From: Patescibacteria group bacterium
GTDB taxonomy: Bacteria > Patescibacteriota > Minisyncoccia > Minisyncoccales > PEYH01
Direction of reading: 5' to 3'
DNA length: 64,000 nt
Assembly: GCA_018900835.1 (NCBI GenBank)
Contig: JAHIFQ010000015.1
Span: 50,301 to 114,300, forward strand
In this document: positions 6,030 through 62,054 of the stretch, piece by piece
Numbering within the stretch: position 1 is the first letter of the stretch
Layout of the letters: every line of letters begins with the position of its first letter
Made by a program: the position numbers and the translations under genes
The notes under the pieces: generated by a model
Seen by the model: the letters and a program-made list of their open reading frames with translations, nothing else
Database searches by the model: none
What the model was told of the DNA's origin: nothing

Positions 6030-6043
6030 TCTTTAGAATCACA

Positions 6044-6070
6044 ATGTTTAGAGGTTCAACCTCTAAACAT
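6044..6070. repeat. Palindromic element family 2 (ATGTTTAGAGGTT-C-AACCTCTAAACAT), copy A
   Basis: Perfect 13+1+13 palindrome. Identical copies at 7433-7459 and 42206-42232. Confidence 0.85.
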
Positions 6071-6077
6071 CGAATGA

Positions 6078-7335: not shown

Positions 7336-7431
7336 ATTGTTGTATGGAACCAAAAAACGCCCTCCCAGCGTCTTTGGACAAAGAACTATTTGAAAAAATC
7401 TCCGATAAAATCAGAGAAATATAATTGGCTC

Positions 7432-7460
7432 AATGTTTAGAGGTTCAACCTCTAAACATT
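7432..7460. repeat. Palindromic element family 2, copy B (plus partial direct repeat CTCTAAACAT at 7464-7473)
   Basis: Identical to 6043-6070 core. Confidence 0.85.
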
Positions 7461-7474
7461 TTTCTCTAAACATC

Positions 7475-7757: not shown

Positions 7758-9467
7758 ATGAAAAAAGCGCTTTTAACAGCAATTATTTTTGTTTCTCTGT
7801 TTGGAGCAGGTTTTGTGATGGCTTATGAGGCAATAGATAGTTTTGATGTGATTATTAAAGTTAATTCTGACAGCACTCTTAATATTGAAGAACAAATTAA
7901 ATATAATTTTGGACTTGCTGACAAACACGGCATTTACAGGGATATTCCTATAAAGTATCAGGCAAGGGGAGGAAATTATAATCTTAGAATTTCTGATATT
8001 GAAGTGGTCAATGAAAATGGGCAGCCATATAAATTTGCCATTTCCTCTGAAGGCGAATACAAGAGAATCAAAATTGGCGATGCAGACAAATATGTTACTG
8101 GGCAGAAGACATATATTATAAGATATAAGATTGGGAGGGCGATAAATTATTTTCAGGACTACGATGAAATCTATTGGAATGCCACAGGCAATGAATGGCA
8201 AGTGCCTATTTTAGAATCATCAGCAAAAGTGATTTTGCCGGAAGCAACTAATATTCAATCAATTAAGGCAGATTGTTTTGCCGGAGCAATTGGAAGCATA
8301 GAGAAATGTTCCAGCGTTATTATCTCATCAGAGCCATCAGGAATGATTGAGTTTTCCCAGACAGCGCTGTCCTCATATCAGGGCTTAACCATAGTTGTTG
8401 GGGTGCCGAAAGGAGTAATTACGCCACCTTCCAAGTTTTCTGGAGCAATAGAGTTTTTGCGAGATAATTTGATTTTATTCCTACCAATAGTAGTATTCAT
8501 TATTTTCTTCACTATCTGGTGGAAAAAAGGCAAAGACCCGAAAGGCAGAAAAACAATTATTGCTCAATATTATGCGCCTGATAACTTGACTCCCGCAGAA
8601 GTAGGAACAATTATTGACGAAAGGGTTCATAATAAAGATATTTCAGCAGAGATAATACATTTGGCGATTAAGGGATATTTAAAAATTAAACGGAATGAAA
8701 AAAAGATTTTATTCGCCAAATCAATTGATTATGAACTTATCAAACTCAAAGAAGATGATGGCTTGCAAAATGATTTTGACCAAAAATTGTTCAAAAGCAT
8801 CTTCAAGACAAAAAACGAAGTAAAGCTTTCTGATTTAAAGAAGGATTTTTTCAAAAGCGTTAAAGAAATCAGGGACTTGATTTACAAATCAGTTACAAAA
8901 AATGGCTATTTTGTAAGCCATCCGAATAAGGCGCGTATAAGTTATATTTCTATTGGCATTATTTTTCTTTTGCCCCTTATGTTCGGAGCTGGGCTTCTTA
9001 GCAAGTCCACAGTAGTTATCAGTTTGTTAATAACAGGTCTCTTAATAATGGTTTTTGGTTTGATTATGCCGAAAAGGACATTAAAAGGAGTTTTAGCCAA
9101 AGAACATATTTTGGGATTAAAGGACTATATAGAAACAGCAGAAAAAGAGAGGATTAAGTTTCATAATGCGCCTCAAAAAAATCCAGAATTATTTGAAAAA
9201 CTTTTGCCAATGGCAATGGTCTTAGGAGTAGAAAAGGAATGGGCAGTTCAATTTAAGGATATTTATCTTAACCAACCAAGCTGGTATGAGGGGCCAGTTG
9301 GTACTGGTTTTAACTCTATCATTTTTGTCGGAAATCTTAATTTTTTCGCATCAGCAGTTCGTGGGTCAATGGCTGCTCCGGGCGGGGCAGCAGGTGGAAA
9401 GAGCGGTTTTGGGGGAGGTGGTTTTTCAGGAGGCGGATTCGGTGGCGGAGGAGGTGGAAGTTGGTAA
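7758..9467 (+). CDS. DUF2207-like membrane protein with Gly-rich C-terminal tail
   Basis: Signal/TM at N-terminus, several TM helices in the middle, C-terminal GGGFSGGGFGGGGGGSW tail typical of DUF2207 proteins. Confidence 0.5.
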   Translation: MKKALLTAIIFVSLFGAGFVMAYEAIDSFDVIIKVNSDSTLNIEEQIKYNFGLADKHGIYRDIPIKYQARGGNYNLRISDIEVVNENGQPYKFAISSEGEYKRIKIGDADKYVTGQKTYIIRYKIGRAINYFQDYDEIYWNATGNEWQVPILESSAKVILPEATNIQSIKADCFAGAIGSIEKCSSVIISSEPSGMIEFSQTALSSYQGLTIVVGVPKGVITPPSKFSGAIEFLRDNLILFLPIVVFIIFFTIWWKKGKDPKGRKTIIAQYYAPDNLTPAEVGTIIDERVHNKDISAEIIHLAIKGYLKIKRNEKKILFAKSIDYELIKLKEDDGLQNDFDQKLFKSIFKTKNEVKLSDLKKDFFKSVKEIRDLIYKSVTKNGYFVSHPNKARISYISIGIIFLLPLMFGAGLLSKSTVVISLLITGLLIMVFGLIMPKRTLKGVLAKEHILGLKDYIETAEKERIKFHNAPQKNPELFEKLLPMAMVLGVEKEWAVQFKDIYLNQPSWYEGPVGTGFNSIIFVGNLNFFASAVRGSMAAPGGAAGGKSGFGGGGFSGGGFGGGGGGSW

Positions 9468-41408: not shown

Positions 41409-42609
41409 TTAATAATAATCTATTATACTTTGCCAGTCGTTCAGGCATAACTGGCGCGCCTGATTTAATGAAATCAGCGCCAACCCCGATTGCAAAGTCA
41501 GCAATGAAATCATCCATTGTTTCTCCTGAACGATGAGAAACCATTATTTTCCATTGATGCGCTTTTGCCAATTTTATTGCCTCTATTGCTTCGCTAACTG
41601 TTCCTATTTGATTTACTTTAATAATTACTCCGTTGCAAGCTGTTTTTTCAATCGCTTCTTGTATTCTCAATGGATTTGTGACCAATAAATCATCCCCGAT
41701 AATTGTCATCTTACTCCCCATCTTATTATAAATCCCTTGAAATCCCTGCCAATCATCTTCTGCAAAAGGATCTTCAAAACCAATAATAGGATATTTTACA
41801 ATCAAATTATTATAAAATTCAAGCAATGCGCTTCTGCTGAAAGGCAGGCCTTCAAGCTGATAATTTTCTCCATCTTGGAAATGAGTGGCAGCACAATCAA
41901 GAAGAAATCCAACTTCTTTTTTATTAAACCCAGCTTTAACCACCGCTTCTTGCAAAAAATCCAATGCTTCAATAGTAGAGGGAATCATCGGAGCAAATCC
42001 TCCTTCATCCCCTATCGGAAGTTTATCAAACTTCCTGCTTAAAATTCCTTTTAGTGATTGATAAATATCTTTTGCTGACTGAAAATTTTCTGAAAAACTA
42101 TTCATTTGGGGAACAATCATAAACTCTTGAATATCTAAATCATTATTAGCGTGAGCTCCCCCATTGATGATATTAAAACAAGCTAAAGGCATCTTAAAAT
42201 TTTCAATGTTTAGAGGTTCAACCTCTAAACATTGGGAGATGTGTTTGTAGAGAGGGATGTTTTTAGTTTGAGCGCCGAGCTTGGAAATTGCCATTGAGAC
42301 CCCGACAATTGCGTTGCCACCAAGCACCGATTTATCAGCTGTTCCATCAATCTCAAGCATTAAATTATCTATTTCTTTTTGATTTGTTGGGTCCTTGCCA
42401 ATTAATTGCGGGGCAATGATTTCATTTACATTTTTAATCGCTTTTGGAACATCTATGACTTTTGCTTCCAGCTTACCAGTGGAAGCGCCAGAAGGAACCC
42501 CTGCTTTAACAGAAAAATCAGAGGTTTCTGCTATAACCTCTATTGTCGGATTCTTTCGCGAATCCAATATTATCTGCGCTGTAATTGATTTAATCTTCAC
42601 CATTTTCAT
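41383..42609 (-). CDS. eno: Enolase, carrying an in-frame palindromic-element insertion
   Basis: SITAQIILDSRKNPTIEV N-terminus, NIINGGAHA, KVNQIGTVSEAIEA. Likely start MVKIKSI. Confidence 0.85.
   Translation of the reverse strand: MKMVKIKSITAQIILDSRKNPTIEVIAETSDFSVKAGVPSGASTGKLEAKVIDVPKAIKNVNEIIAPQLIGKDPTNQKEIDNLMLEIDGTADKSVLGGNAIVGVSMAISKLGAQTKNIPLYKHISQCLEVEPLNIENFKMPLACFNIINGGAHANNDLDIQEFMIVPQMNSFSENFQSAKDIYQSLKGILSRKFDKLPIGDEGGFAPMIPSTIEALDFLQEAVVKAGFNKKEVGFLLDCAATHFQDGENYQLEGLPFSRSALLEFYNNLIVKYPIIGFEDPFAEDDWQGFQGIYNKMGSKMTIIGDDLLVTNPLRIQEAIEKTACNGVIIKVNQIGTVSEAIEAIKLAKAHQWKIMVSHRSGETMDDFIADFAIGVGADFIKSGAPVMPERLAKYNRLLLIEEKENEK
42204..42234. repeat. Palindromic element family 2, copy C, in-frame inside eno (encodes ~QCLEVEPLNIE)
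   Basis: CAATGTTTAGAGGTTCAACCTCTAAACATTG (15+1+15). Confidence 0.85.
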
Positions 42610-54533: not shown

Positions 54534-57500
54534 TTAGCCCGATTTGCGGAACTCGCAAATGTTTTTAAAGTCGCAGGATTGGCATTGCCAACCCGGAGCT
54601 GCCTTGAAATCGCTATTCTCAATCTTTTCAATTTTACATAAGACCTCTTGCTTGAATTTCTCTCTCTCTCGCTCATTGCTTTGAAAGGTAATTTTTTCGT
54701 TGTTCTGAAGATAATAATAACTTAAATATTCCGGCATTTTGCCAAAAATCTGTTCTCCTGCCAGTTGGTAAATAAGCAATTGTTCTTTCTCATCTTTCGT
54801 GAGCTTATCTTTGCCTTTGCCTGTTTTGTAATCAATTATTTCAAGTTCTCCATCAGGTAATTCATCAACTCTGTCTATTTTGCCTTTTATGCTATTATCC
54901 TTAATTTTCAAGAAAAAATCCAATTCTAAACATGGCTTACTATTCAAAGATAAAATCTTTGGCTGTTCTTTGAGAAATTTTTCCAAAAAATCTTTTAAAG
55001 TATCTTTCCCTAATTTAAAATATTCCTGCTTCTGTTTTTTATCCTCATACCACTCATCAATCCAATTTCTTTCATAAAAAACAATCATCTTCTTAAATTG
55101 CTCGGAAAAATCAATCTCTTTCTTAGCGCTTGGTTGAGCCGAGTTTTTGAAAAGCCCTTCTTGATTTTCTTCTTTGTTTTCAAGATAATCTCCTAAAAAT
55201 TGGCGTAAAGTATTGTGTATTGTTTTTCCAAAACTGAAAAATGCTGTGCCGATTCGCGGAATCTTTAAAATGTGGGAAAACTTGTACTGTAGGGGACATT
55301 TATCAAAAGCAGCGAATTGAGAATAGGAAAAATGCGGAGGGATATTATATTTTGTTCTTCTCTTCTCTTTTGTTTCTACTTGTCCTGATTCTAATGATAC
55401 TTTCTCTCCAGTTTGCTCTTCTGGCTTTTTAAAATTTATCTCTTCTAAAAATCTAGATAATTTTTTCTTTCGCGCTCCTCCATAATCATCCGCCGAGGTA
55501 AAGAACAGCCCTTTTTTCGCCCGAGTCATTGCTACATAAAACAATCTTCTTTCTTCCTGTAAATGGACATCTCCGCTCGGCACAATCTCTTTCACCAATT
55601 TACATGGAATTTCTATCGCCTCCTTTCTTTCATTGGTTGGAAATCTCCTATCCACAAGATTGATTATAAAAACGAATTTGAATTCAAGTCCTTTGGCAGA
55701 ATGTATGGTCATTATTTTCACCGCATCAGGACCCTTCTCTATATCCATTTCCAACGACCCGGCTTCCCCTGATTCAAGCTCCATATTCATTGCCATCATA
55801 AAATTGGCAAGGGTTGGCTCTGGGTTGCTTTCTTCAAATGATTTTATCTTTTTATAAAATTGGGTTATCAAATTAATATCCCTCTCGCTCTCCTGTTTTA
55901 CCATTTCCTTTAAATATCCTGAATCGTTCAAAAAAGCGAGAAAAACATCCCCTATGCTTTTCTCCCTTATCAATTTAGAATGTTTTTTAATCAAATCCAT
56001 TAGAAATCCAATTTTCTGTACTGTGTTTTTTGAAATCCCTGACACCAAAGGCAAATCCTGCAATGTTTCGTATGTTGATTGGGTTTTTTTCTTGCTGAAT
56101 TGATTTATTTTAACCAATTCTTCAATCCCCACTTCAAACAATGGCAAACTCAAAAGCCGATTCAAGGCAGAACTTTCATGATAATTATCAAGTAATCTGA
56201 AATAGGAAACAATGTCTAAAATAACTGGCTGGGAGTAAAGTCCTTTTGAAGCCAAAAATTCGTATGGAATTCTTTGTCTTTCTAATTCTTTGAAAAATGG
56301 AGTTGCCGAATCATTCGCCCTTACCAACACAACAAAATCAGAAAAACTTGTCTCTTTGTCTTTACGCATAATTTCAGTAATTTTCTTTGCAACGCCCTCT
56401 GCTTCTCTTCCAAGGGTTGCGAAATGAAGATGCTCAATCAGTCCCGCTGAATCATCTTTGGCTCTTAACTTTTTATCTATCTTTTTAAACGAGGAAAGCT
56501 CAATACCTTTTTCCTTTGCCTCAACAGCAATTTCTTTATCTTGATTCAATTGGTATTCAAGCCGATTTGGATTATTCAACTGGATAAAATTATACGCTAA
56601 ATCAAGAATATTCTGGGTTGAACGATAATTCTCCACAAGGATTATTTCTTTTGACTCTGGAAAGTCCTTTTTGAATTGCAGGACATTATTGAAAGACGCA
56701 CCCATGAAGCGAAACACACTTTGGTCATCGTCTGCGCAAACAGTAAGATTATTTTTCGGCTTAGCCAAAATTTTAATCAACTCATATTGCGCCCAATTAG
56801 TATCTTGAAACTCATCAATCAAAATATATTTAAATTGGCTTCTATATTTTTTCAAAATAGTTGGCCTCTCCTTAAATAATTTCAAGCAATAATTTATCAA
56901 ATCCCCGAAGTCCAAAGCATTGTTTTCCAAAAGCAAGCGTTGGTAAATATGATAAGCGTTAGCCAGTTCGCTTATTCTCTGCTGTTCTATTTCTATTTCT
57001 TTTTGGGATTTTTTTTCTTTTTTATCCATTACTCTACTCCCGAAAATACCATCATCAAAATTCCTCTTAATATCATCTGCGTATTGGAGATAATCCTCTG
57101 GAAAAATAGCTTCGTCTTTGCACTTGGCAAAATGATTAATCAAAGAATGAATAAATTTTGAAGGATTCCCAAGAGGACGGTAATAATCAAGATTAAATTT
57201 ATCTAAATTTTGCCTCACTAAAACCCAGCCCCCTGTTTGGTCAAGCAATTTGAAATTAGTAGGCAAGCCAATGTCTAATCCATGCTCTTTTAAAACTCTT
57301 TCGCAAAAAGAATGGAAAGTGGAAATCCAAAGGTCTAAATAACCAAAAGGCAAAAGCCGGTCAACTCTTTCCTCCATCTCGCCTGCTGCTTTTTCAGTGA
57401 ATGACAGCGCTAAAATTTCCTGTGATTCTGCTAATTTGTTCTCTATTAAATTGGCTATGCAACGAGTGATTACTGTGGTCTTGCCAGTTCCTGCTCCTGC

Positions 57501-57608
57501 AACAATTAAAAGAGGCCCTTTGTTATGCAAAACCGCGTCTTTCTGCTCTGGGTTCAATTGCTCAAGATATTTTGATTTTTTGTTTTCAAGAGGCATATTA
57601 TTGCTCAA
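54534..57608 (-). CDS. UvrD/PcrA-like SF1 helicase fused to C-terminal Cas4/AddB-like PD-(D/E)XK Fe-S nuclease
   Basis: Walker A AGAGTGKTTVITR, YILIDEFQDTN, helicase motifs through VMTIHSAKGLEF. C-terminal EIIDYKTGK, QLLIYQ, C-x18-CQSC-x5-C. Confidence 0.7.
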   Translation of the reverse strand: MSNNMPLENKKSKYLEQLNPEQKDAVLHNKGPLLIVAGAGTGKTTVITRCIANLIENKLAESQEILALSFTEKAAGEMEERVDRLLPFGYLDLWISTFHSFCERVLKEHGLDIGLPTNFKLLDQTGGWVLVRQNLDKFNLDYYRPLGNPSKFIHSLINHFAKCKDEAIFPEDYLQYADDIKRNFDDGIFGSRVMDKKEKKSQKEIEIEQQRISELANAYHIYQRLLLENNALDFGDLINYCLKLFKERPTILKKYRSQFKYILIDEFQDTNWAQYELIKILAKPKNNLTVCADDDQSVFRFMGASFNNVLQFKKDFPESKEIILVENYRSTQNILDLAYNFIQLNNPNRLEYQLNQDKEIAVEAKEKGIELSSFKKIDKKLRAKDDSAGLIEHLHFATLGREAEGVAKKITEIMRKDKETSFSDFVVLVRANDSATPFFKELERQRIPYEFLASKGLYSQPVILDIVSYFRLLDNYHESSALNRLLSLPLFEVGIEELVKINQFSKKKTQSTYETLQDLPLVSGISKNTVQKIGFLMDLIKKHSKLIREKSIGDVFLAFLNDSGYLKEMVKQESERDINLITQFYKKIKSFEESNPEPTLANFMMAMNMELESGEAGSLEMDIEKGPDAVKIMTIHSAKGLEFKFVFIINLVDRRFPTNERKEAIEIPCKLVKEIVPSGDVHLQEERRLFYVAMTRAKKGLFFTSADDYGGARKKKLSRFLEEINFKKPEEQTGEKVSLESGQVETKEKRRTKYNIPPHFSYSQFAAFDKCPLQYKFSHILKIPRIGTAFFSFGKTIHNTLRQFLGDYLENKEENQEGLFKNSAQPSAKKEIDFSEQFKKMIVFYERNWIDEWYEDKKQKQEYFKLGKDTLKDFLEKFLKEQPKILSLNSKPCLELDFFLKIKDNSIKGKIDRVDELPDGELEIIDYKTGKGKDKLTKDEKEQLLIYQLAGEQIFGKMPEYLSYYYLQNNEKITFQSNEREREKFKQEVLCKIEKIENSDFKAAPGWQCQSCDFKNICEFRKSG

Positions 57609-57700
57609 TATTACCTCAATTTCCCTTATGTTTCAATCAAAAAAAGTAGCGCTGCAGACCGGATGTCTGACAGCGCCATAGCAACCTCTTGCGCAGGCCT

Positions 57701-57955
57701 TCATGAGGATTTTGCGAGGAGAATCGTCTCCACGAGATCAACAATCTTCTTGAGCGTGGTACATTCTTGAGCCTGCTCATCAGGGAGATAGATAGAGAGC
57801 TCATCTTCAATCTCCATGATGATTTCAACCGCATCCAATGAATCAGCGCCGAGATTTTCTCTCAAGTCGTCTGAATCTCCTGGCTCCTCTGTGAGATACA
57901 GTTGAGCCATAACGATTCCCACAACTTTTTTTCGGATATCTTCTCTGGTCATCAC
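57701..57955 (-). CDS. acpP: Acyl carrier protein
   Basis: LGADSLDAVEI phosphopantetheine-attachment motif. 84 aa. Confidence 0.8.
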   Translation of the reverse strand: MMTREDIRKKVVGIVMAQLYLTEEPGDSDDLRENLGADSLDAVEIIMEIEDELSIYLPDEQAQECTTLKKIVDLVETILLAKSS

Positions 57956-58020
57956 TCACCTCCTTGGCCAATGGTCCTTGTTCTGTTTATACCCTAAAAC
58001 AATTTTGATAATCTGTCAAA

Positions 58021-59220
58021 TTAAATTCTTTTGCTTTTTATTTTATCCCTTATCCCCTCAAGCTTGGTTTCCAAAAAGAAAAGATTGTGTATTGTTAAAA
58101 GTTTTCCAGCCAACATCTCTTTTGCCCTGAAAAGGAAATTAATTTGGGCGATTGTATATTTTTGGCAAACAGGACATTCACAGTTCTTGTCAATTGGTTC
58201 AAACTTATTCTTCAGCTTTCCAGCATCAAGATTCAAATATCCTTTTGAAGTCATTGCTGTACCGTGCCTTGCAATTCTGGTTGGTAAGGCGCAATCAAAT
58301 AAATCAATTCCCAATTTGACAATTTCTTCCAAAACATCCAAGTCCCCTATGCCCAAAAGATGATGAGGTCTCTGCCAGTCAATGTCCTCATTGACCCATG
58401 ATATTGTTTTGTACATATCTTTTTTGCTTTTGCCCAATGCTCCGCCAATAGCAATTCCGAAAACAGGCAAATCATTTACAAATTTGGTTGATTGTTCGCG
58501 TAAGTCCTTAAAAACTCCGCCCTGAATAATACCAAAAATCTGTTGATTAGATTTATTGCCTCCCACGCCTGAGTTGGAAGCTGTTTTTAAAAACCTTTTA
58601 AACCATTGATGGCTTATTTCCATTTCTTTTTCCGCTTCTTTACGGCTATCCATTGGACTGCCACAAACATCTAAAAGATAAATAAAATCAGCCCCCAATT
58701 GCTTTTGAATTTTAAAAGAAAGTTCTGGCGTAAGCAAAATTTCCCTTCCATCTCTTGGGGATTTAAACCTTGCTCCTCTCTGGCTGATTTTCAAAAGATT
58801 TTTTCCTTTTTTGCGTAAAGCAGAATTTTCTTTCTGCCGAGAAACGATCTCGGCGGATTTTTCTTGAGGAAAAATAGAACCGATTTTCCCCAAACCAAAC
58901 TCGCTTCCTTTGCCTAAAGAAAAAACCTGAAAACCGCCGGAATCAGTAAAAATCGGTTTATCAAAATTAAAAAATTTGTGGAGCCCGCCAATCTGCTCAA
59001 CCTCGTTCGCCCTATCCAAGTCTAAAAAATGGAATGTATTAGTAATTTGGCATTGGGCTTTTGTTTGCTGTGTTTCCCCTGAACTCAAACCGCCTTTAAT
59101 CACGCCCAAAGTTGCCACTGGAATAAATGCTGGTGTTTTTATCTTGCCGTGGGGCGTAATAATCTCTCCAATCCGCGCCCTGCTCTTTTTTGATTTCTCC
59201 TGTATTTCAAATTTGAACAT
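58021..59220 (-). CDS. tgt: Queuine tRNA-ribosyltransferase, with in-frame REP insertion
   Basis: TPHGKIKTPAFIPVAT, DSGGFQVFSLG, LLGIGDLD, zinc site CECPVCQ. ~30-aa insertion containing SAEIVSRQ. Confidence 0.8.
   Translation of the reverse strand: MFKFEIQEKSKKSRARIGEIITPHGKIKTPAFIPVATLGVIKGGLSSGETQQTKAQCQITNTFHFLDLDRANEVEQIGGLHKFFNFDKPIFTDSGGFQVFSLGKGSEFGLGKIGSIFPQEKSAEIVSRQKENSALRKKGKNLLKISQRGARFKSPRDGREILLTPELSFKIQKQLGADFIYLLDVCGSPMDSRKEAEKEMEISHQWFKRFLKTASNSGVGGNKSNQQIFGIIQGGVFKDLREQSTKFVNDLPVFGIAIGGALGKSKKDMYKTISWVNEDIDWQRPHHLLGIGDLDVLEEIVKLGIDLFDCALPTRIARHGTAMTSKGYLNLDAGKLKNKFEPIDKNCECPVCQKYTIAQINFLFRAKEMLAGKLLTIHNLFFLETKLEGIRDKIKSKRI
58837..58855. repeat. REP family 1 copy in-frame inside tgt
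   Basis: GCCGAGAAACGATCTCGGC encodes AEIVSRQ on the minus strand. Confidence 0.85.
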
Positions 59221-59264
59221 AGAACTATTGACAAATTAAATCTCATGATATAGGATAATAATAT

Positions 59265-59480
59265 CACAGCGGGAATCGATATGGGAGTTGCGGCGCTCGG
59301 AAGAACAGCGCTTGCGGGGTAGGCACTCGCTTAGCCGAATCTGGCAGGGGTTACGGCACCTCTTAAATAAAGCTGGCACACACAAGGAGCCAATGAGGCA
59401 CCACACCGAGTCGGAGAGTATCCGGCCAACACCCATACCCGCTGCATCCGCGTCACCCTTTACAGGTTGGCGCGTTTTCT
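59265..59480 (+). ncRNA. GC-rich structured element, candidate ncRNA of unknown class
   Basis: ~58% GC. Stems GCGCU-CGGAAGAAC-AGCGC, CGCGTCACC…GGTTGGCGCG then TTTTCTTTT. Upstream TTGACA…TATAGG. ORF 59288-59536 judged spurious. Confidence 0.3.
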
Positions 59481-59487
59481 TTTATCT

Positions 59488-59520
59488 GAATTTCTTTTTT
59501 TCTAAATCTCTGACTTCTTT
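59488..59520. repeat. 33-bp direct repeat, copy 1 (duplicate of the last 11 codons of metalloprotease gene 59730-60107)
   Basis: GAATTTCTTTTTTTCTAAATCTCTGACTTCTTT, identical to 59746-59778. Followed by CAT (relic start codon on minus strand). Confidence 0.85.
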
Positions 59521-59587
59521 CTTAAACATTTTTTAAATGTGGATAACTGTTATTGACAAAAAACTGATTAATGATAAGGTATAAATA

Positions 59588-59690
59588 GTGCTTGTGGGCG
59601 TAAGCCCCGTTCAGCTAAGGTTTTCCTAAGCTGAAGGCAAGCACTACGAAGAAGCTGATACACATCGGCTTTTTTGTTTTTTATTGATCC
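59588..59690 (+). ncRNA. Compact candidate sRNA with intrinsic terminator
   Basis: Closing stem AGTGCTTG/CAAGCACT enclosing GGGC-GUAA-GCCC (GNRA tetraloop) and an 11-bp hairpin TTCAGCTAAGG/CCTAAGCTGAA. Terminator AGCTGAT-ACAC-ATCGGCT+TTTTTTGTTTTTT. Upstream TTGACA (59553) and TATAAAT (59580) with non-canonical spacing. Confidence 0.4.
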
Positions 59691-59729
59691 TCTATCCCCT
59701 TGTCCGCTAATTGTCTGCATAATATAAAA

Positions 59730-60107
59730 TTATTTGAATTTCTTTTTTTCTAAATCTCTGACTTCTTTTTCACTCATCCCGAAATGGTGGGCAATCTCGT
59801 GCCAAACAGTTCGCTTAACTTTTTCTTTTATTTCCTCTGGGGTTTTGGCAACTGTTTCAATACTACCCTGAAACAATGTAATCTTATCAGGCAAGACATT
59901 AGCGTAAAATGCTCCTCTTTTGGTTTGCGGAATACCCTGATACAAACCGAAAAGCAAACCGCCTGTTGGCACTCTCGCCTGCCTTAACTGCTCTGGAGAT
60001 GGCCAGTCCTCAACCAAAATATCCACATTTTTCATTTTGTCTCTGAATTTCTCTGGAATTTCCGCTATCCCCTGCCTCACTAATTCTTCAAAATCTTCCT
60101 GCCTCAT
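59730..60107 (-). CDS. Minimal zinc metallopeptidase (Zincin_1/DUF1025-like, HExxH)
   Basis: C-terminal HEIAHHFGM. ~125 aa. Confidence 0.55.
   Translation of the reverse strand: MRQEDFEELVRQGIAEIPEKFRDKMKNVDILVEDWPSPEQLRQARVPTGGLLFGLYQGIPQTKRGAFYANVLPDKITLFQGSIETVAKTPEEIKEKVKRTVWHEIAHHFGMSEKEVRDLEKKKFK
59746..59778. repeat. 33-bp direct repeat, copy 2 (genuine 3' end of metalloprotease CDS)
   Basis: Identical to 59488-59520. Confidence 0.85.
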
Positions 60108-60214
60108 ATTTATTTTATATTTTACATCTCATCTCTCATATTTCTTCGGTAATTCTAACCCAAATCCTTCCAAAAAGCAAAAATAGAAATTAATTTCTAC
60201 ATAGTTCTGTCGTA

Positions 60215-60275
60215 GCCAACATCTAATAAAAAATATCCGTGGGCGCCTCGAAAGTGAGGGAGGATACCTCAAGGC
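60215..60275. repeat. Large GC-rich hairpin (17-bp perfect arms AAATATCCGTGGGCGCC / GGCGCCCACGGATATTT, 25-nt loop containing GAGGGAGG)
   Basis: Seen directly in an AT-rich intergenic region upstream of the metalloprotease gene. Confidence 0.6.
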
Positions 60276-60577
60276 GCCCACGGATATTTCTTTTATGTTC
60301 TATTGGTTAAACAATCAAATAAACAAAAAACGCAAAGCCGAAGCTTGCGTCCAGAGACATTATCCCGGGAGTGATTTTATCAAATGACCTCCTCTTGCTT
60401 TTGTTTGTTGATAATAATGAAAAGTACTCCTTTGATTCGTATCATATATTGTATTGTATCTCCAAAACCAGTCAAGAAAGTTATCCACAACCATTCTGAA
60501 TTCTAATTTAAGTAAACAATCGCAAGAAAAACCCGGCCTCTTTTGAGTCCGGGTTTCATTGCTTTATAAAAAAATGC

Positions 60578-61369
60578 TCATTCTATCGTTTTATCAAAAA
60601 TATCCAAATAATCAATATTTTTGTCATCCAAAAGAAAGGGTTTTAATTTTTTCTTAAAATCCTTGATGTTTAATTTTACTTTTCTTTTATAAACATCAGT
60701 TAATTTTTCAAACAATTCTTTCTCTGTTTTAACTTTCATCTCAGAAAAAAGTTTTGGATGAGGTTTAACCCTATAAGACAGGAGCCAAGCAATATCGTAA
60801 AAATCTCTTGGCTGAATATCTTTTCTAGTGAGGGCGGCTCGAATCTTTTGAGATAAAAGAAAGCTTTTTGTGTTTGTAATAACAGGCCGAAGAAAGCCAA
60901 ATCTTTTTAAAATAACGACTTCCGTCTCTGGTCTGGTCTTTGGTGTAGTGTAATTAATTTTAACATTTAATTTTTCATTCTTATCGGTGGTAATTCCTAA
61001 ATCAAAAAGCAATTTGGGGAATTTAAAACTCCCAATTCCAGAATTATTTGTTTTCTTAAAATTGAATTCCGCTTCAAGATTCTCCTTTTTGAACTCCGAG
61101 GATATTTCCTTGAACAGCGACCTTATTTTCTCGTGAGAAAGACCTAAATTATCAAAATCTAAATCCTCGGAAAATCTATCTATATTCCTTAAAATTCTTA
61201 AACTAGTTTCTCCAATAAAAGAGAGCTTTTCCGATTTTGGCTGGTTATAGAGATGATAAATCGTCTTACATTGGAGATATTCTCTAATTAAAGCCCTTTT
61301 CTTTGTCTCGGGAACCTCTAAGCTTTTGCCTTCTTCTAAAATTGTTTGCCACAAAAATTCACTAATCAT
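60578..61369 (-). CDS. abiEii: AbiEii/AbiGii-family nucleotidyltransferase toxin (type IV TA / abortive infection)
   Basis: FIGETSLRILRNIDRFSEDLDF matches the GGTAL..R.S.DLD AbiEii motif. Confidence 0.6.
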   Translation of the reverse strand: MISEFLWQTILEEGKSLEVPETKKRALIREYLQCKTIYHLYNQPKSEKLSFIGETSLRILRNIDRFSEDLDFDNLGLSHEKIRSLFKEISSEFKKENLEAEFNFKKTNNSGIGSFKFPKLLFDLGITTDKNEKLNVKINYTTPKTRPETEVVILKRFGFLRPVITNTKSFLLSQKIRAALTRKDIQPRDFYDIAWLLSYRVKPHPKLFSEMKVKTEKELFEKLTDVYKRKVKLNIKDFKKKLKPFLLDDKNIDYLDIFDKTIE

Positions 61370-61995
61370 TTTTTATATTCTTTAAATAAGTTTTCCATAG
61401 ATAAATGGAATTTTTTGTTATTTGAAGAAACTAATTTTTGCCACTTCTTTAAATCGCTCCATTTGAAATCCTCGCCAATATCCAGACGCATTTCCTTAAA
61501 ACAATTCTTCGGATCAAAACCCTTTCCGAAGCTTCGTAGATATAAAAAATCAAATAGCGCTTTCTCCGGGACCGCTATCCTATAAGAGTATGGGGAATCA
61601 GCGTCTACCTTTCTATGACCAAAGAAAAGTTCTGGTTTGATATGACGATAAATAAATAAACCGTAGTTCTCCGTTTTGATTGTTAATGTTTTCTTAAGAG
61701 AGATAGAAGTGGTGGCAAAAGGAATATCTGGAATAATCCCATAATAATTTAAAGCGGTTTCGCAAGAGATATAAGAAGGAAAGAAAAAATCAGCCAAAAC
61801 TAAAACATCTTTTATCTGATAATCGCTAAATTTATAAATCCCTCTTTTCAATCTTTCCAGATGCCCTCTTTTTGTCCAGACGCTCAATTGGAAAATTATG
61901 GTTCTCCTATTTTCATTGGCGAACCATTTAAAAATATCATCTAATCTAAAAATAGGATAATCTTGTAATTTTTTCTTTAATTCAAAATAGGTCAT
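61366..61995 (-). CDS. abiEi: AbiEi-family antitoxin-like protein (N-terminal wHTH)
   Basis: 4-nt overlap upstream of AbiEii gene. ~200 aa with N-terminal basic wHTH-like region. Confidence 0.45.
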   Translation of the reverse strand: MTYFELKKKLQDYPIFRLDDIFKWFANENRRTIIFQLSVWTKRGHLERLKRGIYKFSDYQIKDVLVLADFFFPSYISCETALNYYGIIPDIPFATTSISLKKTLTIKTENYGLFIYRHIKPELFFGHRKVDADSPYSYRIAVPEKALFDFLYLRSFGKGFDPKNCFKEMRLDIGEDFKWSDLKKWQKLVSSNNKKFHLSMENLFKEYKK

Positions 61996-62054
61996 TTCTG
62001 AAAGTTATACTTTTTTATAACTAATAGAATTATATCTATTGTGTCAATATTAAA

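Follow-up and report, generated by a model that had tools for sequence, protein, structure and literature searches.

A structured small RNA between duplicated protease gene ends in a Patescibacteria genome: probable orphan of a two-gene cassette

What does a compact RNA gene between two copies of a neighbouring gene's end represent: the insertion of a mobile element, with the repeats as its signature, or the outcome of another history? The case considered is a 64,000-nucleotide stretch from a Patescibacteria group bacterium (GenBank assembly GCA_018900835.1, contig JAHIFQ010000015.1, positions 50,301 to 114,300, forward strand), referred to below as the window, in which a candidate small RNA lies in the spacer between a gene for a Zincin_1 metallopeptidase (the protease) and tgt, the gene for queuine tRNA-ribosyltransferase. 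The original prediction was of a small integrative element that had duplicated its target, or of an RNA cassette flanked by attachment (att) sites. The explanation that best accounts for the whole is a different one, held here with moderate confidence: the RNA is the orphan of a cassette that elsewhere pairs it with a protein gene, and the repeats are recombination scars at a hotspot.

The small RNA, its family and its protein partner

The small RNA, about 90-96 nt, is on the plus strand at 59587-59682, as judged from its fold, its terminator and a covariance-model match. Folding of 59585-59685 yields -47.6 kcal/mol (z = -6.9), with none of 200 shuffled sequences as stable, and includes a three-way junction (59588-59644) in which a closing stem, P1 (59588-59595 with 59637-59644), encloses P2 (59596-59599 with 59604-59607, capped by a GUAA loop), the nucleotides CG (59608-59609) and P3 (59610-59620 with 59625-59635). 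A GNRA-capped stem and an 11-bp hairpin within a closing stem had been predicted, and the fold is as described save that one of the 11 positions of the P3 hairpin (59610-59635) is an A-A mismatch. Downstream of the junction and a linker, a terminator scan marks 59646-59677, the core stem as read by eye being 59652-59671 and the U tract extending up to 59682. The putative promoter (59553-59580, plus strand), read from the sequence as TTGACA (59553-59558), a 16-nt spacer and TAAGGT (59575-59580), is in the same place, about 7 nt upstream of the RNA, as the TTGACA...TAnnnT of more than 100 homologues with which it aligns; a simple promoter scan flagged nothing ahead of the small RNA. Both the promoter-like region between the repeats and the compact structured transcript candidate with an intrinsic terminator, as first proposed, gain support from the homologues, the latter also from the fold and the predicted terminator.

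Homologues were sought first with a covariance model built from the window RNA and that of L003 (L numbers designate the comparison loci fetched for the analysis), and most loci were then gathered with a 20-nt core pattern. The pattern occurs in at least 120 metagenome stretches, plus two viral contigs, and about 100 of the matches are the same type of gene: a TTGACA...TAnnnT promoter is followed after about 7 nt by GUGCYUG-UGGGCGNAAGCCCCGUUCAGCUAAGG-loop-CCUAAGCUGAAGRCARGCAC, and this in turn by the linker AACAAAG and the terminator. The closing stem covaries and encloses a near-invariant junction core, U-GGGC-GNRA-GCCC-CG-UUCAG...CUGAA-GR, the invariance of P2 in the pattern-gathered set being forced by the search pattern. 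The 102 homologues aligned to the model score 34.7-120 bits; the covariance-model match of the window RNA is one of 117 bits. Pairing holds in 96.4% of the cells of the 102-sequence alignment, with compensatory changes in 21 of 30 pairs, a result equalled by none of 500 shuffles, and slid controls bring the paired fraction down to 26-47%. Covariation supports all four helices; the terminator covaries freely, and the invariant part is the junction. Between the window and L003 RNAs there are nine substitutions, all of which avoid or preserve pairing. The homologues are single structured units with no tandem arrays, and no tandem repeats are present in 59200-59800 of the window.

Six loci were found through the protein considered below (L003, L209, L211, L212, L217 and L218), and 6/6 carry the exact 20-mer, the proteins of the last five being 54-58% identical to that of L003. 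The promoter in L211 reads TTGACT-17-TATAGT. The Infernal/Rfam scan that had been suggested as a check was run, and no family of Rfam 15 matches the small RNA: there was no relevant match at E <= 1 over 57000-62000, nor at E <= 10 over 59200-59720, and the sole match at gathering threshold in the window is a tRNA elsewhere. A literature search found nothing on a small-RNA or toxin–antitoxin module of this kind in Patescibacteria. Judged by sequence and covarying fold, the small RNA is a member of a large, previously undescribed family. Patescibacteria account for much of bacterial diversity, hardly any have been cultured and few of their non-coding RNAs are described; a strongly covarying RNA family outside Rfam is one yield of the locus.

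Several known types of RNA were considered and set aside. A transfer-messenger RNA (tmRNA), including the two-piece form, was suggested by the occurrence of the core in the tmRNA of L087 (below), but ARAGORN finds none in the window and the small RNA has no T-arm. The conserved motifs of signal recognition particle RNA, 6S RNA, hammerhead or other ribozymes and domain V of group II introns are absent, as judged by eye. An RNA-guided or bridge-RNA-type system was likewise rejected, the RNA having no variable segment able to match its flanks.

The partner protein family is labelled ORF159 after the 159-aa gene of L003; its members are of about 157 aa (152-165 aa), and RNA gene and ORF159 gene together form a cassette of about 0.75 kb. 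Among the matches listed, 84 have the two genes convergent, 8 have them in tandem and about 14 are orphan RNAs. In convergent loci an open reading frame (ORF) of 152-165 aa, ending ...FWSVMP...GIEDE*, has its stop codon a few bases past the U tract of the RNA, and in tandem loci (e.g. L212) promoter, RNA, terminator and ORF follow one another on one strand with no antisense overlap. At least eight of the orphan RNAs keep the last ORF159 codons, and the window is such a case. Its remnant (59681-59720, minus strand) consists of an ATG, one extra base (C), the last 11 codons, RQLADKGIEDQ, and a stop; it matches L003 4836-4871, the end of the intact 159-aa gene, and resembles the family C-terminus ...GIEDE* of the 84 convergent loci among those listed. 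There is no other ORF159-family member in the window. The protein gene of the window has been deleted to an ATG plus its last 11 codons, and the RNA is therefore an orphan.

The ORF159 family counts at least 921 clusters, with at least 1017 representatives at 50% identity; none is annotated, and every one comes from Patescibacteria. No match to it was found in Pfam, NCBIfam, PADLOC or PHROGs, nor by sequence in PDB, a Foldseek search of PDB with a model gave no match with E < 0.1, and no relative was found in IMG/VR. The nearest likeness is to LPD3 (PF18798), a domain described from the polyvalent proteins of phages and plasmids (Iyer et al. 2017, PMC5512222). Against the full-length LPD3 model two distant members reach 26.0 and 23.3 bits, below the Pfam cut-off of 27 bits, and the core members, with a best E of 0.065 against the profile, do not match it. 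The top BFVD matches of the AF2 model of ORF159 (pLDDT 82) are four LPD3 proteins, with probability 0.97-1.0. As modelled, ORF159 resembles LPD3 in fold, with the difference that it is a solo cellular protein; it is predicted to be soluble, with an alpha/beta fold and a charged acidic tail. No RNA partner for LPD3 was found in the literature. As it appears from these comparisons, RNA plus ORF159 is a widespread, previously undescribed two-gene cassette of Patescibacteria, which ties about a thousand clusters of unannotated protein to an RNA and whose protein may be related to a phage domain.

A second RNA–protein cassette, divergent from the canonical one with which it stands in tandem, is present in L092 (1527-1627) and L096 (2425-2520). 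Its RNA has other sequences in P2 and P3 within the same three-way architecture, and its protein has diverged too, which suggests co-evolving cognate RNA–protein pairs.

The arrangement of the genes bears on what the RNA may do to its partner. In Bacillus subtilis the type I pairs TxpA/RatA and BsrG/SR4 are likewise convergent, with transcripts that overlap at a shared terminator. If the cassette functioned in this manner, the RNA would control ORF159 mRNA in cis via the overlap of about 30 nt at the 3' ends, and the window RNA would be a functionless relic. Apart from the resemblance itself, the sharing of a hairpin by the 84 convergent loci among the matches listed is in favour of such control. 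It is nevertheless very unlikely: the eight loci with the RNA upstream on the same strand have no overlap and keep the same junction, the invariant part of the RNA is this junction, outside the overlap, whereas the overlapping terminator covaries freely, and ORF159 is a soluble protein of about 157 aa, not a small membrane peptide. The shared hairpin of L211 is a predicted terminator on both strands, and termination on both strands would explain the conserved A-rich linker. Given tandem loci without antisense overlap, the conserved junction itself must matter.

One way for a junction to matter is as a ligand-binding, riboswitch-like aptamer, which would be a 5' leader in tandem loci and phages and a stand-alone sensor RNA elsewhere. 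The junction is indeed compact, with invariant nucleotides, the order in eight loci is that of aptamer, terminator and ORF, and in the phage-like contig L123 the closing stem reaches over a Shine-Dalgarno sequence. However, for most copies (84) there is no gene downstream that could be controlled, an alternative anti-terminator pairing is not evident, the downstream genes in leader contexts are mutually unrelated, and conservation extends to the sequence of helical positions, as is more typical where a protein recognises the RNA. Of the alternatives weighed here, the aptamer is the least probable.

The repeat and the protease–tgt spacer

The repeat pair found by a repeat search spans 48 nt (59482-59529 and 59730-59777; 43/48 identical, 90%) and includes an exact core, TGAATTTCTTTTTTTCTAAATCTCTGACTTCTTT, of 34 nt at 59487-59520 and 59735-59768. 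This core is the longest exact direct repeat of the 64-kb window, about 8e-11 such pairs being expected by chance. Copy 2 (59730-59777, minus strand) is the functional 3' end of the protease gene (59730-60107, minus strand; Pfam PF06262, E = 1.2e-28), and copy 1 (59482-59520, minus strand) is a displaced relic of a protease 3' end, with codons -12 to -1 and TAA. An exact duplication of the final 11 codons, with the second copy at 59746-59778, had been claimed. The repeat is real and 11 codons are exact, but these are codons -2 to -12, the final codon being AAA (Lys) in the gene, as in L003, and AGA (Arg) in the relic, and the coordinates proposed for the second copy were 10 nt too high. The relic start codon noticed beside copy 1 is a real ATG (59527-59529, minus strand), the first of three tgt-like codons, ATGTTTAAG, which at 59521-59529 are fused to the protease relic. 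Intact tgt is at 58021-59220 (minus strand; Pfam PF01702, E = 2.9e-108). Genuine tgt starts read ATGTTTAAG in L003 and ATGTTTAAA in L002, and the 9-mer of the window is extended in L003 to a relic of the tgt 5' end 50 nt long.

The two genes are the conserved flanks of a changeable spacer. Contigs were traced for protease homologues of 91%, 87%, 75% and 73% identity; in all of them protease and tgt are adjacent and on one strand, and the orthologues adjoin tgt in L002-L006, L214 and L216. Five states of the spacer are found: empty (L216, 40 bp with a hairpin only), a structured RNA of about 200 nt and nothing else, on the opposite strand (L214/L215), an AbiEi/AbiEii pair only (L002), cassette plus AbiE (L003-L006, in the order 159-aa ORF, small-RNA unit, 50-nt relic of the tgt 5' end, AbiE, tgt) and the arrangement of the window. 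Comparison of orthologous loci, also proposed at the outset, finds the insert absent from L216, L214/L215 and L002, and a single copy of the protease 3'-end repeat in the relatives. In L003-L006 the small-RNA unit, between the 159-aa gene and the tgt relic, is present without the repeat of the window. The 197 bp between the window repeats correspond to L003 4836-5032 with 88% identity, the figure for the protease gene being 83% and that for tgt 77%. On the promoter side this homology extends through CTTAAACAT, which on the other strand is ATGTTTAAG, the first three tgt codons, and on the terminator side it takes in the final 11 codons of the ORF of 159 aa. The protease loci of 80 GTDB species representatives, at 69% identity or less, were all without the RNA, as judged with the window and L003 covariance model. 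Gene content between the conserved protease and tgt thus varies among close relatives, the mark of a minimal mobile element, and the spacer behaves like a hotspot of that kind.

A small autonomous integrative or transposable element, inserted with its RNA at the protease 3' end and making a target duplication or att repeats, would account for part of this. Exact 34-nt repeats bracket the unit, there are relatives with one repeat copy and no unit, a few other cassette copies are also flanked by direct repeats, and some cassettes adjoin large serine recombinase genes. Islands that target tRNA or tmRNA genes integrate at a gene 3' end and carry a replacement copy of it, and in the window, likewise, inserted DNA restores the gene end while the displaced end stays as a direct repeat. 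However, no recombinase or transposase gene is present between or beside the repeats, as judged from ORFs and Pfam, and a repeat search found no terminal inverted repeats at the ends of the insert. The latter, and the lack of a fixed length for the duplications at cassettes, also distinguish it from insertion sequence elements and miniature inverted-repeat transposable elements. Unlike the islands, the insert has no integrase, its repeat is chimeric with tgt codons and in other genomes the unit comes without this repeat: the L003-L006 copy has other flanking sequences. Neither an att crossover nor a staggered cut would yield a chimera of tgt and protease codons. What accompanies the RNA in more than 100 other loci is the protein gene and not a fixed pair of ends, and the duplications that flank other cassettes are pieces of a local neighbour gene, of variable length (18-36 nt). 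An autonomous element is, on balance, highly unlikely. Of the original prediction, the insertion survives, orthologous loci in relatives having one repeat copy and no unit, and so does a structured small RNA with a promoter and terminator of its own; a self-contained integrative element, and with it att sites or a target duplication, does not.

Direct repeats of 18-36 nt surround the cassette in L198 (3638/4403), L124 (1507/2661), L168 (43/1331), L138 and L150, and extend into diverged duplications of the 5' or 3' end of a neighbour gene; the cassette of L150 is between two paralogous genes. Inverted-orientation controls give almost no repeats of that length.

Copy 1, in which three tgt codons are joined to a displaced protease 3' end, is therefore a recombination scar, neither an att site nor a target-site duplication, and the 248-bp 'element' is the decayed remnant of a two-gene cassette that arrived with fragments of its former neighbours. 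The two copies differ in affinity, copy 1 ending ..FR* like L214 and copy 2 ..FK* like L003. Copy 1 abuts the terminator of another structured RNA, RNA1 (described below), and its layout of protease stop, A-rich run and RNA terminator is mirrored in L214, where the protease is also Arg-ended. The history that we infer would start from an ancestor with protease, RNA1 and tgt, as in L214. DNA of an L003-like strain (protease, ORF159, RNA, tgt) would have recombined into this L214-type spacer by one homologous crossover within the protease gene and a second, illegitimate join of donor tgt codon 3 to recipient protease codon -13, so that the old protease end (..FR*) was left as copy 1 and the new one (..FK*) supplied as copy 2, with loss of the ORF159 gene after import. 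A Campbell-type single crossover of a circular copy would be an alternative route to the same outcome. Counting against the scheme, the Arg/Lys difference between the repeat copies is one nucleotide, no microhomology is visible at the tgt/protease junction and the scenario is rebuilt from arrangements alone.

Exchange by recombination in flanking genes is the accepted explanation for the minimal mobile elements of Neisseria (PMC3787668). The protease–tgt region likewise holds different cassettes without mobility genes, and flank-homologous exchange after DNA uptake would, to judge from the relics, be the process at this hotspot, natural transformation here being an assumption. Unlike the Neisseria cases, the exchange in the window would have had one illegitimate end, and stacked cassettes and gene-end scars would be the consequence. 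Such scars, left by the stacking of cassettes at a hotspot, are easily mistaken for att sites or target-site duplications.

L003, with its tgt relic beside AbiE, has a scar of another gene as well. Just before an MNT/HEPN pair, itself ahead of the intact protease gene, there are two relics, one of sequence upstream of the protease (2743-2778) and one of an internal piece of that gene (2814-2864; 51 nt, 90% identity), the scar left by a second cassette insertion.

Function of the cassette and its wider contexts

Since the junction is invariant and is kept in tandem loci without antisense overlap, the folded RNA would be recognised, most simply by the partner protein. A tentative proposal, short of being probable though a better fit than its alternatives, is that RNA and ORF159 behave as a type III-like toxin–antitoxin or abortive-infection pair, in which the RNA is the antidote. 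The structured RNA would bind and restrain ORF159, some phages would carry the RNA core as a decoy, and the orphan of the window would be a harmless leftover antidote or would retain a function of its own. The proposal draws on the repeated loss of the protein gene with the RNA kept, on the presence of the RNA at every protein-anchored locus (6/6), on the divergence of both partners in paralogous cassettes, on the association with other toxin–antitoxin or defence cassettes and recombinases, and on phages that carry the RNA core alone.

Type III systems (ToxIN, CptIN, TenpIN) have in common with the cassette a protein with a structured non-coding RNA partner and a patchy, mobile occurrence among defence and toxin–antitoxin genes; the order of promoter, RNA, terminator and protein gene is found in the eight tandem loci and not in the 84 convergent ones. 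Phages with the core alone recall phage PhiTE, which reportedly escapes by means of a pseudo-ToxI. However, the RNA of type III systems consists of tandem 34-36-nt repeats, whereas that of the cassette is a single three-way junction, usually convergent with its partner, and ORF159 has no similarity to ToxN/AbiQ by PADLOC or by Foldseek against PDB. With no repeat array and no ToxN-type toxin, the cassette would therefore be a variant outside the type III family and not a member of it. More doubtful again is that three-way-junction RNA and LPD3-like protein constitute a new RNA–protein class of toxin–antitoxin or anti-phage systems that phages counter with copies of the core, though it is this possibility that would provide the first functional handle on LPD3, as an RNA-binding or RNA-targeting domain. 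The RNA family, the protein, its tie to the phage LPD3 domain and the phage-borne copies of the core together make a testable RNA–protein conflict module.

Several observations sit poorly with a toxin and antidote. The fold of ORF159 is like no known toxin or nuclease, and LPD3 itself has no assigned function; the RNA is a single structured unit, unlike the tandem repeats of known type III antitoxins; the RNA partnership of the protein rests on the six protein-found loci, most others having come via the RNA pattern; and the core is found inside a tmRNA (L087) and at the 5' end of phage mRNAs (L088, L110), neither of which an antidote model obviously predicts. A role outside conflict, with a trans-acting or protein-sequestering RNA, ORF159 as its chaperone or processing partner and the orphan of the window still at work, would accommodate that reuse of the core in tmRNA and mRNA leaders, and also its extreme conservation across lineages, the recurrence of orphan RNAs and the structural integrity of the window RNA, promoter included. 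Such a ribonucleoprotein or regulator is nonetheless unlikely, given a patchy distribution with variable location even among close relatives, divergent paralogous cassettes in tandem (L092, L096), cassettes beside AbiE and MNT/HEPN cassettes and recombinases, and an RNA without a variable 'seed' region.

The sites that the cassette occupies are unrelated to one another: the space between fusA and tuf, that between efp and recA, the position after dnaX and, next to restriction genes, the position directly after a large serine recombinase. AbiE and MNT/HEPN cassettes and recombinases are among its neighbours. In L218 (3422-5471), L093, L131 and L182 the ORF159 gene directly follows a large serine recombinase gene of the same strand, at a distance of 10-170 nt, so that integrative elements may be the carriers of some cassettes. 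Near the L218 cassette there are also restriction–modification genes and a Phage_CRI replication gene.

Seven loci (L088, L110, L123, L136, L139, L169 and L087) have the junction core, inside closing stems that covary, but not the protein. In L088, a terminase-encoding phage contig, it is at a transcript 5' end, and L136 encodes a phage-type exonuclease; L110, L123, L139 and L169 are, like L136, other phage-like contigs with the core. L087, an IMG/VR contig, has a tmRNA gene at 771-1121 (Rfam, 49.5 bits), with a tRNA gene directly after, and within it at 988-1030, at the usual pseudoknot position of tmRNA, a shortened junction core, GAGG-UGGGCGCAAGCCCCGUUCAG-CGCAAA-CUGAAGA-ACCUC.

Other features of the window and its relatives

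RNA1 (59228-59478, plus strand) comprises a promoter (59228-59256, scoring 10/12) and a G+C-rich structured RNA of about 215 nt (about 59262-59478; fold z = -3.1) with its own terminator, and has no Rfam match. Its counterpart in L214 (3880-4095, minus strand; fold z = -6.0), present also in L215, is of the same size, strand and position, and the two have 32 predicted pairs in common, 15 of them compensatory, with shared blocks such as GCUCGC..GCCGAAU. With the exception of this positional counterpart, nhmmer found no RNA1 homologues among all fetched loci. RNA1 is probably a resident gene of the protease–tgt spacer.

The spacer ahead of the protease gene (60228-60292 and about 60328-60475, minus strand) contains a hairpin with 24-bp arms that are 92% complementary and, on the minus strand, a promoter-like TTGACT-16-TACAAT with a terminator about 110 nt later, which looks like another small transcript or a leader. 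The putative transcript could encode a 21-aa peptide, MIRIKGVLFIIINKQKQEEVI, with weak similarity to other loci. On the far side of the protease gene, at 60578-61995 (minus strand), an AbiEii toxin gene (Pfam PF08843) overlaps an upstream gene for a 209-aa partner, presumably AbiEi; the AbiE pair between protease and tgt in L002 and L003 is unrelated to it. Downstream of tgt, a UvrD-like helicase of 1395 aa in L002 has an intein (8056-8387; Pfam Intein_splicing), and that of the window, of 1024 aa, has none. Elsewhere in the window three intergenic copies of a perfect palindrome of 30-31 nt, CAATGTTTAGAGGTTCAACCTCTAAACAT, at 6042-6072, 7431-7461 and 42204-42234, look like a repeat of the repetitive extragenic palindromic (REP) type.

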